Source of the DNA: a bacterium
GTDB taxonomy: Bacteria; Fidelibacterota; Marinisomatia; Marinisomatales; UBA1611
Length of the DNA: 10,069 nt
Reading direction: 5' to 3'
Assembly: GCA_038127595.1 (NCBI GenBank)
Contig: JAYPIC010000063.1
Location: forward strand, 1-10,069
Part shown: positions 4,552 through 10,069 of the stretch, piece after piece
Numbering within the stretch: the stretch's first letter is position 1
Layout of the letters: the number at the start of each line of letters is the position of its first letter
Translations under genes and position numbers: made by a program
The notes under the pieces: model-generated
Databases searched by the model: none
Seen by the model: the letters and a program-made list of their open reading frames with translations, nothing else
Told to the model about the DNA's origin: nothing

Positions 4552-5808
4552 GTGATTTCAGAAAATCAAAAAAAAAGATTAGAAAATCTTTCTGAGCTCA
4601 TTTATAGAGCTAGTTTAAAAGTAAAAATACTCAGACATATTTCATGGCCTCCTGAAGTAAAATATCAGTTCTTTAAACAGAATTGTCAAAAACTCCCTGA
4701 ACATAATTATCCAAAATTTGATTCTACAGATTTAGATCAGATTCTATTAAAAATTGATGGTCAGATTGGAGACACCAAATATGACCTTTGGCTAAAAAAT
4801 AAGCTGAAAGATATTAGTTTGAGTGCAAATTTGTTAAAAGCAAGTGGGACCAAAACTTTTTTCGAAATATCGTCAAATATTTATGGACTTCCAAGTACAC
4901 TCATTCATGATGGTCAAACAAAGCCTTTGGATCTTTCTGAGCAGTTTTACCAGATAATAAACTCTATCGACAAAACAAAATTAAAGTTGTCTAAAAGTTC
5001 TAAGATCAGCTCTCACGATGTCGCAAAGCAAATTTCTTCTACAGTCAGTGATTACTTTGGTGAATTTGCTCCGAAAACATCTGTGGTAAAGCATTTATCA
5101 GCGAAAGCTACAGCAACATCAAAAAAAATAAAAATACGTGAGGATGGCGTTTTCTACCAATCTGATGTAGATCAACTTATAAACCATGAGGCATTCATTC
5201 ATGTTGCGACTACAATTAATGGCAGAAAACAAAATAAAATGAAGATATTAGGTTCAAATTACGGTGCTATTACAAAAACTCAAGAAGGACTGGCTGTTTT
5301 TTCTGAGTTTATCACTGGTTCGATCAACATCGATAGAATGCGTAGAATTTCTGATAGAGTGAAGGCAATACAAATGGCTATTGACGGAGCTGATTTTATT
5401 GAAGTCTATAGATATTTTATTGATAAAGGAATATCAAGGAATCAGGCATTTGAAAATAGCAGAAGGGTATTCAGAGGAGGAGTATTGAGTGGAAAGTACC
5501 CCTTTACAAAAGATTTGGTGTATTTAGATGGTTTTATTAGGGTATATAACTTTTTCCGATCCTCAATCTCCCAAGGGAAAATAGAATGTATTGAATTACT
5601 ATTTGCAGGAAAAATGGAGTTGGATGATTTGCCTGTCGTATATAGTATGTACAAAGACGGATTAGTAAATAAACCTAGTTTTATACCTCCATGGGCAATG
5701 AATTTAAATTATTTAATATGTTTCTTAACTTTCTCAGTATTTCTTGAAGATATCAATTATTCTAATGTTTCAAAATATTATGATTCTTTACTCACGGGAG
5801 TTAAATAA
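4552..5808 (+). CDS. DUF1704 / QEGLA-motif protein, putative HExxxH zinc metallopeptidase (MATCAP-related family)
   Basis: HEAFIH (HExxxH) at 5185-5202, TKTQEGLA with QEGLA at 5281-5295, RVFRGG and FTKDLVYLDG. GTG start. Confidence 0.85.
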   Translation: MISENQKKRLENLSELIYRASLKVKILRHISWPPEVKYQFFKQNCQKLPEHNYPKFDSTDLDQILLKIDGQIGDTKYDLWLKNKLKDISLSANLLKASGTKTFFEISSNIYGLPSTLIHDGQTKPLDLSEQFYQIINSIDKTKLKLSKSSKISSHDVAKQISSTVSDYFGEFAPKTSVVKHLSAKATATSKKIKIREDGVFYQSDVDQLINHEAFIHVATTINGRKQNKMKILGSNYGAITKTQEGLAVFSEFITGSINIDRMRRISDRVKAIQMAIDGADFIEVYRYFIDKGISRNQAFENSRRVFRGGVLSGKYPFTKDLVYLDGFIRVYNFFRSSISQGKIECIELLFAGKMELDDLPVVYSMYKDGLVNKPSFIPPWAMNLNYLICFLTFSVFLEDINYSNVSKYYDSLLTGVK

Positions 5809-7671
5809 TTACTCTTTCATTAATAACTTAATTTTTTGTTTCATTGCTTCGAATTCATCTTTGTCAAATAATCTAGTTAAAAAAGCAATATTCCCTTTTT
5901 TATCAATCACTATGTTCCTAGTGACTCCAGCATTTTTATGAGCAAATTTAGAAAAATGATTTGCTTCTGGGTCTAAAGCTAAAGGATAAGTTATTCCGGT
6001 TTGTTTTTTAAATTTTTTAACAACTTCTAAAGGTTCATCCCTATCAATGCCAATAAGCATAAGACCTTCATCTTTAAAGGGTAACCAAACTTCTTTTTCT
6101 AGATGTGGCATTTCTTGGATGCAAACAGAGCACCAACTAGCGGTGAATTGAAGAACCACAACCTGTCCTAAAAGTTCAGAGAGATTTATTCTTGTCCCAT
6201 CAAGCATATTAAACTCTAAATTTGGAGCCTTATCTCCAATTGAAACTTTATACCCTCTAGAATCAACTGCTGGCCTATTAATGATTTCTTTATATGCCTG
6301 ACTTCCATCCCTGAGGTTTCTATCTTGGCTAGAAAAATCAACTTCATATAATCCAAATTTCATTGAATAACCCTCAGCCCATTCGAAATTATCCATCAGA
6401 GACCAGTAAAAGTATCCATTTACAATCAATCCATCTTGCATAGCTTGAAAAAGCGCATACAAATACCTATTGATAAATAGTTTTCTTCTATCATCTTTAT
6501 CATCTGCAATGCCATTTTCAGTTACGATGACAGGAATTTCTAATTTACTTATCGTATTCAAAGCTTTGTAAAAACCTTCCGGGTAGATGGAATAGGGCAT
6601 ATCTGTTTGTATGTCTTGCTTTCTTTTTTCAAAAGTGAATGGTTCGTTAGGATTTAAATGGCCTTTTACGTGCCACCTTGAGTAATAATTTAAACCAATA
6701 AAATCTAAAGCTTTAATCGCTTTAGTATTTGTGTAAGATAGATCTGCCATACCTGGTAGATAAAATCTGAATTCTCCTTTCAATAATAGATCTATTGTGC
6801 TATTTGTGAATATATCATTTAAGATCTTGCTAAAATACCAATCTAAAACATGCCATCTCCGTAGTGGATCAAACTGAGTGATATTTTTTACAAGACCAAT
6901 TTGTGATTGATCTCCATTTTTTAATGATTTTAAAAGGTGGTACACCTCTGTGTGAGCATACAAAAGATTCTTCATCACCTCGCCAGCTAGTAAGGGATCC
7001 TTTTTGCCTGGTGGAAATACACCATTAAAATAACCTTGTGATACATAAACTGCTGGCTCATTTATCGTACACCAGTACTTTACAATGTCCGATAATTCGT
7101 TAAATATTAGCTCCGAAAATTCTAAAAAGTATTTAATATTTTCTTCCTTTTCAAAACCACCCAGGTCCTCAAACCATAAAGGATGTGTAAAATGATGTAG
7201 AGTAACCACAGGAACTAACCCTGAATCAATTAGGGCTATACAAACTTCGCGGTAATGATCTATGGCATCTTGATCTATCTTATTAATAGTTGGCATTATT
7301 TTACTCCATTCAACAGAGAATCTGTAAGCATTAACGCCAATATTTTTCATTAGATTAATATCTTGTTTATAAAGATTCCAGTGGTCTGCAGCATCACCTG
7401 ACTTATCACTATTATGTATTCTAGATTTACCATTTTGATCAAACGAATGTTCCCATCTATACCAGTTGTTATTTGTATTGAATCCTTCCACTTGATGCGC
7501 AGCAGTGGCTGTTCCCCAAATAAAATTCTTAGGAAAATACATGTCTTTGGTATTTATATTTTCCCAGTCCCACTCAACATCTGGGTACTTATCATTTAAA
7601 TAAATTATGGATCCAACCCAAACAGTACCCAAAAGTAAAACAAGAATTTTAAATATTTTTTTAATGTTCAA
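5809..7671 (-). CDS. Fusion protein: N-terminal membrane anchor, glycoside hydrolase family 1 (beta-glycosidase) and C-terminal TlpA-like thioredoxin (redoxin) domain
   Basis: GH1 motifs [44 protein letters not shown] (acid/base Glu at 7057-7059), VTENG (nucleophile Glu at 6517-6519) and [14 protein letters not shown]. The C-terminal ~150 aa has GDKAP...[19 protein letters not shown] (CxxC at 6121-6132). The TTG start overlaps the upstream stop (TTGA). Confidence 0.9.
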
Positions 7672-8621
7672 ATTTCAAACCCGTTTTCTTCCATCCAACT
7701 ATCATTTGGAAATTTCGTCATATAGTTTCGAATCCCATCAGCGAGTATAACTAAACAGTTCTGACCATTTTTAAGCTTTGATGCCGCTTTCAATGCTGCA
7801 ACCATCGTAGCTCCGCATGAGCCTCCACATAATAAACCTTCTTCTTTAATTAATCGTCGAGCCATAATGAAAGATTCTTCATCTTTTGTTTTAATATATT
7901 CATCAATTAAAGAATTATCTAATACATCTGGAATAAAGTCATATCCAATTCCTTCAACTAAATATGAGCTTACTTTGTCGCCACCTCCTAAAATAGAGCC
8001 TTCGGGGTCAGCTCCTATAATTTTGATTTTGGGCATTTCTTCTTTTAACCTTTTCGCAATTCCGGTGATTGTTCCTCCTGTACCAACAGATATAACAACC
8101 ATGTCTAAATTATTATTAAAGTCTTTAATTATTTCTTCAGCGGTACCATAATAATGAGCTTCAGGATTTGATGGATTTGAATATTGATCTAGAATATGGG
8201 AGTTTTCTATTTCTTTATTTAATTTTTTTGCCACAGAAATATGACTCTCTGGATCGCTTGATTTAGCTTCGGTTGGAGTTCTAATAATTTCAGCACCCAA
8301 TGCCTCGAGAGCTATCTGTTTTTCTTTACTCATTTTTTCTGGCATCGTAATAATACATTTATATCCCTTAACCGCAGCTGCTAATGCTATACCTTGGCCA
8401 GTATTCCCTGATGTTGGTTCGATAAGTGTATCTCCAGGTTTAATTCTTCCAGAAAGTTCAGCTTCTTTTACCATATTCCATCCTATTCTATCTTTCACTG
8501 ATCCGCCTGGATTAAAGAATTCACACTTAGCAAAAACATTGCAATCTAGATTCTTTGCAATTTTATTTATTTTGACTACCGGGGTGTTGCCAATGGTGCT
8601 TAAAATATTTTCATGTATCAT
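7668..8621 (-). CDS. Cystathionine beta-synthase-type PLP enzyme (cysteine synthase family), catalytic core only
   Basis: [15 protein letters not shown] (PLP lysine codon at 8493-8495), EPTSGNTG and [38 protein letters not shown] and RNYMTKF are CBS-type rather than CysK-type motifs. Confidence 0.88.
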
Positions 8622-8713
8622 TTGTTTATGTTAATTAGTTAAAATTGTGTTCTATATTATTAAATAGTCTATGCAATATAAATGTGTTATTTCGTAAATA
8701 TGCACAATAAAAA
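8622..8713. promoter_or_regulatory. Very AT-rich 92-bp intergenic region between divergent genes; probable bidirectional promoter region
   Basis: This is the only sizeable non-coding gap in the window. It lies between the divergent starts at 8621 (-) and 8714 (+). Individual -10/-35 boxes cannot be assigned reliably. Confidence 0.5.
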
Positions 8714-10069
8714 ATGATAAACCAATCTCATAAATTATCCGGTCCATTTTTAATTGATCTAAAAAATAGGTTCAGGCAAATAGCTGGAAGTGATAATAAA
8801 ATCGATAGGAAAGAATTTAAGAACGGCCTATTAATTGATAATGATCAAATTAAAAATCGAATCTTTGACATTTTTGATACTGATCAAAATAATTTTTTGG
8901 ATATTAGAGAATTTATTGATGGTATTGAAAGATTGATTAATGGAACCACTTACGAAAAAATTAAGTTTGCTTTTCAAGTTCATGACATTGATGGAAGTGG
9001 AGATATTGATAAGCTTGAGTTAGAAATTTTAGTAAAAAACATTTTAATTGAAAATAATTTAGATTTTGACGCTAATCAAATATCTCTAATCGTAAGTGAT
9101 TTATTCAAAAAAGTCGACATTGATGGAAATGGCAAGATTGATTTTGATGAGTTTTTAAAATTAGTAGAGGAGTATCCTGATTTTTTAAAAAGCCTAGCTG
9201 TAAATCCTTTGTCATGGTTTTATGAAAAAGATCAAAGTAAAGATGGAGCTGCTGTTAAAAAATATAAATCGTCAGGAAAAGTTCAAATTGAAGGTTTGAG
9301 TCTAATACAATGGCTTCTAGTCCCGAGGTTAATTTATCTGTTCAATATAATTGTTAAGCGAAATTCAAATATTAAACCTATTCCAATAAAATCCGTAAAA
9401 ATATTGCCTGAAAAAAATGTGTCATTTTCTTTTGAAAAACCTAAATGGTTACAAAGTAATCCTGGTGATTATGTTTATGTTAATTGTCCTTGGGTCTCAA
9501 AGTTTCAGTGGTTTCCTTTTAACTTAATGACATCTACAAAAAATAAAATTGCCTACTTGAATATTAAAGCTAGCGGTGCCTGGTCAGAAAAAGTATATGA
9601 TAAAACTATAGCAAAATTAAATGATAGTAGCTTAGAAAAATTAAACATAAGAATAGATGGTCCATATGGATCATCTAGTAATGAAATTTTAAATTCTAAA
9701 AATATCATTCTTATTGCAGCTGGTGCAGGAATAGCAAAATTTGCTTCTATCCTCCAGGATATTGCTTTTAAAATTAAAGATAATATCGTGAAATCTGACC
9801 TTGAATCAGTTCATTTTATATGGCTGTGTGATGACAGCTTTTATGTTGAGTGGTTTAAAAAATTATTGCGAGAGCTTGATAACGAATATGAATCTATTAA
9901 TTTTAACTATGATATTTATTTTACGAAAAGAAATGCAGCTTCTTTACCAAAAGACATGCTTTATATTTCTAAAGATCTTGTTAATAACGAGTACGATATT
10001 GACCTATTAGATGGCTTAGGAAAACACAATCACATTTGTTCAACAATATGGTATGATAAGTTTAAAAAT
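8714..10069 (+). CDS. NOX5-like EF-hand / FAD-NAD(P)H dehydrogenase (FNR-fold) protein lacking the ferric reductase-like transmembrane domain; 3' partial
   Basis: Translated manually; it is not in the ORF track because it has no stop in the window. ATG at 8714 follows an in-frame TAA at 8708-8710 and the frame stays open for 452 codons. EF loops: AGSDNKIDRKE (8783-8815), DTDQNNFLDIRE (8876-8911), DIDGSGDIDKLE (8984-9019), DIDGNGKIDFDE (9116-9151). Then WLLVP (9311), PGDYVYVNCP..S..QWFPFN, IKASGAWS, IDGPYG (DGPYG 9656-9670), LIAAGAGIAKFASIL and VHFIW...VEWF. Confidence 0.88.
   Translation, partial: MINQSHKLSGPFLIDLKNRFRQIAGSDNKIDRKEFKNGLLIDNDQIKNRIFDIFDTDQNNFLDIREFIDGIERLINGTTYEKIKFAFQVHDIDGSGDIDKLELEILVKNILIENNLDFDANQISLIVSDLFKKVDIDGNGKIDFDEFLKLVEEYPDFLKSLAVNPLSWFYEKDQSKDGAAVKKYKSSGKVQIEGLSLIQWLLVPRLIYLFNIIVKRNSNIKPIPIKSVKILPEKNVSFSFEKPKWLQSNPGDYVYVNCPWVSKFQWFPFNLMTSTKNKIAYLNIKASGAWSEKVYDKTIAKLNDSSLEKLNIRIDGPYGSSSNEILNSKNIILIAAGAGIAKFASILQDIAFKIKDNIVKSDLESVHFIWLCDDSFYVEWFKKLLRELDNEYESINFNYDIYFTKRNAASLPKDMLYISKDLVNNEYDIDLLDGLGKHNHICSTIWYDKFKN

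Follow-up and report, generated by a model that had tools for sequence, protein, structure and literature searches.

The gene under study lies at positions 8714..10069 of the forward strand of the window (the whole 10,069-nucleotide stretch of DNA analysed) and encodes a NOX5-derived protein in which EF-hands are joined to a dehydrogenase (DH) fold and transmembrane (TM) helices TM1-5 are absent. On balance we read this short protein as a Ca2+-sensing pseudo-dehydrogenase: the membrane part is lost, the cofactor residues are changed and the calcium motifs are intact, so it is likely a calcium switch and not an enzyme. The fuller reading, which taken as a whole we hold to be evenly poised, is that of a natural NOX pseudoenzyme, in which NOX5 would have been made a stand-alone calcium sensor by deletion of its heme domain and fixation of inactivating changes in the FAD and NADPH sites, with the EF-DH movement and the TM6 remnant reused to signal to a new target. 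The family of TM-less EF-hand and DH proteins is real and conserved, and apparently undescribed.

The gene, its assembly and its family

The source genome (2.0 Mb, 33% GC, 95.8% complete) contains the window as one whole contig, C63. The reading frame starts with ATG and is still open at the contig end, covering aa 1-452 of 492. Extension past position 10069, proposed in the preliminary description, was obtained from contig C13, whose reverse end (38079) overlaps the last 84 nt of C63 (81/84 identical) and whose reverse strand adds the final 40 codons and the stop, giving a full protein of 492 aa. Three mismatches in the overlap (window 10037-10043) alter a conserved Gly and an invariant Pro; since they lie near the contig end and both residues are conserved in the family, they are probably contig-end errors. 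The entire 492-aa ORF, with the same neighbours, is present in a MAG at 94% identity. Among the matches listed, the deletion junction (9215-9310) is crossed by single contigs in two of four runs (X15, 8065-9936; X1, 8735-9530). Contigs from RNA libraries overlap part of the gene; such contigs cannot show transcription, and the libraries may contain DNA. A promoter scan upstream of the start, where a divergent intergenic region of 92 bp (8622..8713) separates the gene from a cystathionine beta-synthase (CBS) gene, gave no clear site. At locus L002 (9476-9510) a 14-pair hairpin lies between the stop of the NOX5-derived gene and a convergent hsp20, with a terminator-like score on the minus strand.

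Pfam searches confirmed the ORF as EF-hands followed by an FNR-type dehydrogenase region and returned the pattern that had been predicted: EF-hands, FAD_binding_8 (aa 222-322, E 5.6e-18) and NAD_binding_6 (aa 329-421, E 3.4e-16), with no match to Ferric_reduct in ORF 8714-10069 at E<=0.1. The homologue search returned 138 homologues, and among the best 120 of these, 113 were full length (480-510 aa); counts for the short form refer to these 113 listed proteins. The comparison set comprised 77 full-length NOX5-like proteins, being the 77 of 90 candidates of 590-960 aa that passed a coverage filter. All 113 short proteins have the same EF-hand and DH architecture and share the junction, at ~40-96% identity, and the relatives' names are Marinimicrobia or Fidelibacterota.

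In the search of related genomes that the preliminary description had proposed, the short form recurs, at one locus, in 44 of the 54 genomes of one Fidelibacterota (Marinimicrobia) family, that of the window. A match of any kind was found in 46 of the 54, two of which (G208 and G047) have only a full NOX5. The short form was absent from all 357 genomes sampled outside this family, one of which (G241) has a full NOX5. Several of the 44 carriers have copies cut by contig ends, and two have the gene in two pieces (G402:C43:15700-17185 and G391:C73:1263-2185, both low-completeness genomes; frameshift or assembly error). At locus L074 (G258:C42:1-1828), in genus g5, CBS is directly divergent from an SDR gene and the NOX5-derived gene is missing, apparently a clean loss; eight of the nine genus g5 genomes have a match.

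Four disjoint unsaturated pairs out of 29 sequences gave dN/dS values of 0.10-0.29, that is, purifying selection; by region the values were 0.078 (EF), 0.044 (TM6 remnant), 0.12 (FAD-binding-type subdomain, FBD), 0.15 (NAD(P)H-binding-type subdomain, NBD) and 0.41 (linker), and the neighbouring CBS gave 0.052 (5 pairs). That the gene is an assembly artefact or a decaying pseudogene is most improbable. The window copy is indeed cut by a contig end, its pair with MED-G177 has the highest dN/dS (0.29 at dS 0.09), and the two divided copies and the empty G258 locus point the same way; set against these, the junction is common to all 113 listed homologues across their range of identity and is spanned by independent contigs, which rules out misassembly, and the presence of the gene in 44 of 54 genomes at the dN/dS values above rules out a young pseudogene. 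The preliminary description had itself named three weak points, namely an unspanned junction, close homologues that keep the membrane domain while this copy decays, and a better placement outside the NOX family. Instead, the junction is spanned, the homologues are TM-less and under purifying selection, and NOX5 is the best structural match.

Independent TM-less EF-hand and DH proteins were also sought. A search for longer proteins returned EF repeats and DUOX alone. The candidate P0213 was rejected, as it has neither TM helices nor FBD and appears to be a eukaryotic gene model with errors, and the other candidates checked among the best 150 representatives were fragments. A 488-aa plant cluster in the ESM Atlas has NADPH_Ox, FAD_binding_8 and NAD_binding_6, with no Ferric_reduct among the three families shown; it may be a parallel TM-less RBOH or a set of faulty gene models.

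Descent from NOX5 and the genomic setting

The closest solved structures were human NOX5 (E 2.9e-57, in three stretches) and the DH of csNOX5. In the PDB alignment, which contains the human NOX5 segments cited in the preliminary description, query residues 17-169 correspond to NOX5 14-166 and query residues 194-301 to NOX5 370-479, and NOX5 residues 167-369 (TM1-5) have no counterpart. The earlier claim that the membrane domain is missing thus held for TM1-5 and the heme histidines and failed for TM6, to which aa 197-218 match. Three of the four heme His columns are gapped in 113/113 short forms and the fourth falls on the linker, with His in 6/113, vs His in 75-77 of 77 in the full-length set. 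The linker over the deletion junction (aa 170-196; 9221..9301, +) replaces preTM1 and TM1-5; it is variable, with aa 171-193 predicted to be disordered, and this stretch measures 27-33 residues in all 113 short forms vs at least 180 in full NOX5, which points to one deletion.

Full NOX5, with its four heme His and unaltered motifs, was found in four genomes (G208, G217, G241 and G047), three of the genes being complete (662-663 aa). In a joined EF and DH tree (shared columns, 34 of 190 rows, eight cofactor columns removed) the short proteins form a single group (100/100) nested with bacterial NOX5, as sister to the Marinimicrobia full NOX5 (95/94), and the two together adjoin cyanobacterial NOX5; trees built from EF alone or DH alone give no resolved sister group, and shared low GC could draw these two Marinimicrobia groups to each other. 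The NOX5 origin proposed at the outset is therefore upheld by best structural match and tree alike: the short protein comes from a bacterial NOX5 that shed TM1-5 together with its four heme histidines. With the heme domain lost, it should not be able to act as a stand-alone trans-membrane superoxide generator, in agreement with the preliminary description.

The CBS gene (7668..8621, -; TIGR01137 over cut-off) is the divergent neighbour in 27/27 loci having at least 400 bp upstream, and downstream of the NOX5-derived gene were found hsp20 (18/27), SDR (8) and FMN reductase (5). In genomes without the gene (G047, G208, G240, G012 and G258) CBS is directly divergent from SDR or an SDR remnant, and the carriers' CBS genes group together (SH-aLRT 99); from these two observations, the locus probably arose by a single insertion at the start of an SDR run. 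The divergent CBS thus predates the NOX5-derived gene and is inherited synteny, which is not evidence of a functional link. An FMN reductase gene is present in 29 of 54 family genomes, mostly alongside the NOX5-derived gene, and replacement of the one by the other was ruled out, the pattern being absent. The gene context holds no signalling partner.

Two further genes of the window were recorded. Positions 5809-7671 (-) encode a fusion of a GH1 beta-glucosidase with an AhpC/TSA thioredoxin-like domain at the C-terminus; in other genomes (L041, L043 and L047) the AhpC/TSA part is found by itself, next to CBS. Positions 4552-5808 (+) lie downstream of a UPF0004 radical-SAM TRAM gene and encode a MATCAP / QEGLA-motif protein (PF08014, E 2e-116). 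The full Marinimicrobia NOX5 has a setting of its own: in three genomes of two families (L037:7507-15250, L038:7229-14967 and L039:1485-9258) it lies directly against the 3' end of a run of four genes with a common orientation, three of which are multiheme cytochrome c-like. This context is odd for a NOX, and the full protein may pass electrons to cytochromes rather than to O2.

The preliminary description had offered a split NOX, with a cytochrome b partner encoded elsewhere, as one of three functions. That the short protein is half of such a system, feeding a separate cytochrome b in the manner of Fre with an MsrQ-like protein, or is a regulatory subunit of a full NOX5, we hold to be very unlikely. 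The motif (V/I/L)xGP(F/Y)G, which sits at the TM interface of NOX (PMC9421330), is kept in 107/113 short forms; one carrier (G217) has both forms; and eight weak, sub-cut-off PF01794 matches occur in 7 family genomes. Over the cut-off, however, PF01794 matched 3/54 family genomes, each time within a full NOX5, and a Marinimicrobia NOX5 membrane-domain profile (3 sequences) matched the same three, again inside full NOX5. No stand-alone Ferric_reduct gene and no free NOX membrane domain were thus found over cut-off across the 54 genomes, many of them incomplete. A full NOX5 is present in only 1/44 carriers (G217) and was not found in the source genome, 95.8% complete, and no membrane gene adjoins the NOX5-derived gene.

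Cofactor sites, calcium side and function

Both cofactor sites are altered. In the FBD (aa 222-322; 9377..9679, +) the flavin motif (aa 266-270; 9509..9523, +) has Phe for His and Asn for Thr in the window copy, with Pro and Phe kept; across the short forms His remains in 3/113 (Tyr 99, Phe 11) vs 77/77 full-length proteins, Thr in 3/113 (Asn 104) vs 74/77, and the following Arg in 6/113 (Lys 87) vs 71/77. In the NBD (aa 329 onward; 9698..10069, +, cut by the contig end) the pyridine-nucleotide motif (aa 337-343; 9722..9742, +) keeps its Gly pair and has Ala-Lys for Thr-Pro; the family has Ser/Ala then Arg/Lys here, the Thr of GxGxTP remaining in 3/113 vs 76/77 and the Pro in 0/113 (Arg 62, Lys 51) vs 77/77. 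The Arg following the second NBD strand remains in 2/113 vs 70/77, the Cys of CG in 8/113 vs 76/77, and the C-terminal Glu in 4/113 vs 73/77, with a C-terminal Phe in 73/113. Of these eight positions, 89/113 short forms keep none and the maximum kept is 3, vs all 8 in 62/77 full-length proteins and a minimum of 6. The motifs used as published filters (PMC5676040) gave the same picture: the FAD motif H[PSA]F[TS][LIMV] occurs in 76/77 full-length proteins, the NADPH motif in 75/77 and both in 74/77, vs neither in any of the 113 short forms.

The DH fold itself is retained. Its structural Gly, Pro and Trp are kept, as are the ring-sandwiching Pro and Phe (112 and 113 of 113) and the second Gly of GxG (113/113). 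Full NOX5 has 53 conserved DH columns, of which the short forms lost 14 of the 17 polar and 10 of the 36 non-polar ones (Fisher p 0.0003, for columns that are non-independent and were chosen on the full-length set). Conservation extends to the replacement residues (aromatic 110, Asn 104, basic 113 and Ser 102 of 113), so the cleft is under selection for something. In NOX2, the substitutions H338Y, T341K, P415H/L, C537R and E568K abolish oxidase/diaphorase activity or FAD incorporation (PMC4550764, PMC11161758). The His-to-Tyr change reported there as disabling is the residue found in 99/113 short forms; it alone equals the disease allele in most members, the other replacements being milder residues. 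We infer from these changes that catalysis has been lost; fold kept, catalytic residues lost and purifying selection, the sequence marks of a pseudoenzyme, occur here together.

It is possible, though rather doubtful, that the protein is a soluble flavin reductase or diaphorase under Ca2+ control whose site has been re-tuned; it would then probably use NADH and free flavin, much as Fre does. The entire FNR fold, the stacking Pro/Phe and the glycines are kept, the replacements are conserved, the DH evolves at dN/dS 0.12-0.15, and the gene heads an ancestral SDR and FMN-reductase run. The NBD Arg has become Glu/Asp in 82/113, which resembles a switch from NADPH to NADH; an acidic residue at this position favours NADH over NADPH. 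Precedents are Fre itself and the SpNOX DH, which alone is a flavin reductase holding the ring mostly by backbone contacts (PMC11031084); the TM-poor splice form NOX4D is reported to produce ROS (PMC5739649). E. coli Fre has Ser-Tyr in place of Thr-Pro and Ala in place of Cys and is active, so that the changes on the NAD side are no proof by themselves. On the flavin side, however, both residues differ from those in all 77 full NOX5-like proteins and in Fre, Hmp and NqrF, three comparators that retain Arg and Ser at the two flavin positions; in place of the Fre-type Arg-x-aromatic-Ser motif the family has Tyr/Phe and Asn. In addition, the first Gly of GxG is lost in 8/113, preTM1 and the two Asp, through which Ca2+ is coupled, have gone, and the FMN reductase gene has not been replaced. 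The Ca2+-gated diaphorase first proposed is weakened: the segments IDGPYG and FASILQ, cited at the outset as matches to NOX5, are present but structural, and positions contacting flavin and nicotinamide are changed in nearly all members. An improbable reading is a sensor without turnover that would still bind a nucleotide, or another anionic ligand, in its altered cleft and integrate it with Ca2+; the new invariant or near-invariant cleft residues (basic at 342 in 113/113, Asn270, Asp349, Tyr377 and Ser467) would suit it, but the same residues could simply pack both subdomains shut.

On the calcium side, the N-terminal segment (aa 1-22; 8714..8779, +) includes, at aa 1-16, the family's most conserved region (mean top-residue frequency 0.82), which is largely family-specific. 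The claim of four EF-hands stands for EF2-4 as canonical loops, and EF1 proved to be non-canonical, with the calpain-like loop of NOX5 (A24, D27, D31 and E34; 8783..8815, +), as defined in PMC9421330; the whole follows the NOX5 subfamily pattern. EF1 was assessed by column, the canonical pattern being inapplicable to its loop (0/113 and 0/77). EF2 (aa 55-66; 8876..8911, +) is canonical in 112/113, and EF3 (aa 91-102; 8984..9019, +) and EF4 (aa 135-146; 9116..9151, +) in 113/113 each; the corresponding counts in the full-length set are 44, 62 and 49 of 77, this set being more diverse and its counts possibly lowered by misalignment. Conserved EF columns are kept at 12/13, and the window protein is the sole EF-hand_7 match in the source genome. 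We infer from these loops that the EF-hands bind Ca2+.

The coupling of Ca2+ to catalysis fares differently. The equivalent of the NOX5 regulatory EF-binding domain (aa 407-434; 9932..10015, +) has a conserved core Tyr417. Two Asp of this segment are required for Ca2+ activation of NOX5 (PMC7317449) and remain in 30 and 37 of 113 short forms vs 56 and 68 of 77 full-length proteins, the window copy having only the second, with a one-residue alignment gap near the first. In NOX5, Ca2+ displaces the regulatory segment and loosens preTM1 over the NADPH pocket, preTM1 thereby coupling Ca2+ to that pocket (PMC11088703). PreTM1 lies inside the deletion of the short form. With preTM1 deleted and the Asp pair unconserved, the link from Ca2+ to catalysis looks cut and Ca2+ binding looks kept.

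In place of the six TM helices of NOX, the short form has one TM6-like helix, TM1-5 being absent in 113/113. This TM6 remnant (aa 197-218; 9302..9367, +) has P204, N211 and R216 invariant, a maximal 19-residue hydropathy of 1.56 (median), and a new mid-helix basic residue (R205 here) in 113/113 short forms vs 0/77 full-length proteins. The basic residue argues against a membrane-spanning helix, as does the fact that EF and DH would face opposite sides of a single span; the remnant is thus likely a soluble or membrane-surface helix. In an AlphaFold2 model (pLDDT 74.5, pTM 0.65) the linker is disordered and aa 197-218 form a helix; the model superposes on human NOX5 in its Ca2+ state over 411 residues (Z 21.6, rmsd 6.2) and on the csNOX5 DH over 237 residues (Z 21.3, rmsd 2.9). 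Pfam and model agree on the FNR superfamily fold, an FAD-binding barrel with an NAD(P)-binding Rossmann-like subdomain.

For the Ca2+-sensing pseudo-dehydrogenase, the following course may be envisaged. Ca2+ would bind the intact EF-hands and move the EF domain against a DH fold predicted to be inert, with no hydride transfer. The EF-DH movement of NOX5 would be reused as a switch, exposing or hiding a binding surface made up of the new conserved N-terminal segment, the TM6 remnant and the remodelled cleft, and the EF domain moving on the inert DH scaffold would regulate a target (protein, membrane or small ligand). Of the three functions first offered, the Ca2+-sensing regulator fits best. 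As a sensor, the protein would show plainly how an oxidase can become a signalling protein and would open a way into calcium signalling among uncultured marine bacteria; it would be a calcium-signalling component in a lineage for which a second EF-hand pair protein was not detected in the source genome. In the pseudoenzyme reading, one of the inactivating changes fixed at the cofactor sites matches a granulomatous-disease allele exactly. Should it be an enzyme, an FNR-fold site works without the Arg/His and Ser/Thr thought necessary. Either way, structural work on the Ca2+-driven EF movement of NOX5 gains a soluble EF-DH module of natural origin.

Comparison with known systems

In the full-text literature within reach, which left out most subscription journals, no TM-less EF-hand and DH protein was described (general NOX papers alone were returned), nor was a Marinimicrobia NADPH oxidase or an NADPH oxidase pseudoenzyme, in line with the earlier statement that the architecture is undescribed. 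The NOX surveys PMC3591440, PMC5676040 and PMC9421330 select for the membrane domain; as NOX is defined by heme domain and cofactor motifs, motif-based surveys are blind to a TM-less family.

After NOX5, the EF domain is matched best by the four-EF-hand sensors of the calcineurin B, CBL and NCS types (E 1e-15 to 1e-22, Z ~14-15), from which the short form differs in that its EF domain is fused to a DH fold and descends from NOX5. Fre and LuxG share with it a soluble FNR fold and tolerance of Thr-Pro and Cys loss, but the NCBIfam match to Fre/LuxG is weak (22.8 vs a cut-off of 230 bits), and Fre, unlike the short form, has Arg and Ser in its flavin motif and no EF-hands; the MsrQ-like partner of a Fre and MsrQ pair was not found over cut-off in the 54 family genomes, many of them incomplete. 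Isolated NOX DH domains and NOX4D likewise have a DH without most of the membrane domain, but they keep the cofactor motifs, lack EF-hands and are constructs or splice forms and not a separate gene family.

The closest likeness is to csNOX5 of Cylindrospermum stagnale and to Marinimicrobia and human NOX5, which share with the short form the four EF-hands with a calpain-like EF1 and, in order and fold, the post-EF segment, TM6 stub, FBD and NBD. Unlike these, the short form has no preTM1, TM1-5 or heme His, its activating Asp pair is unconserved, its FAD and NADPH motifs fail in 113/113 when set against the published definitions, and it measures 492-507 aa vs about 660-720. By published criteria the short form is outside the NOX family, and it would work, if at all, like the cytosolic half of NOX5.
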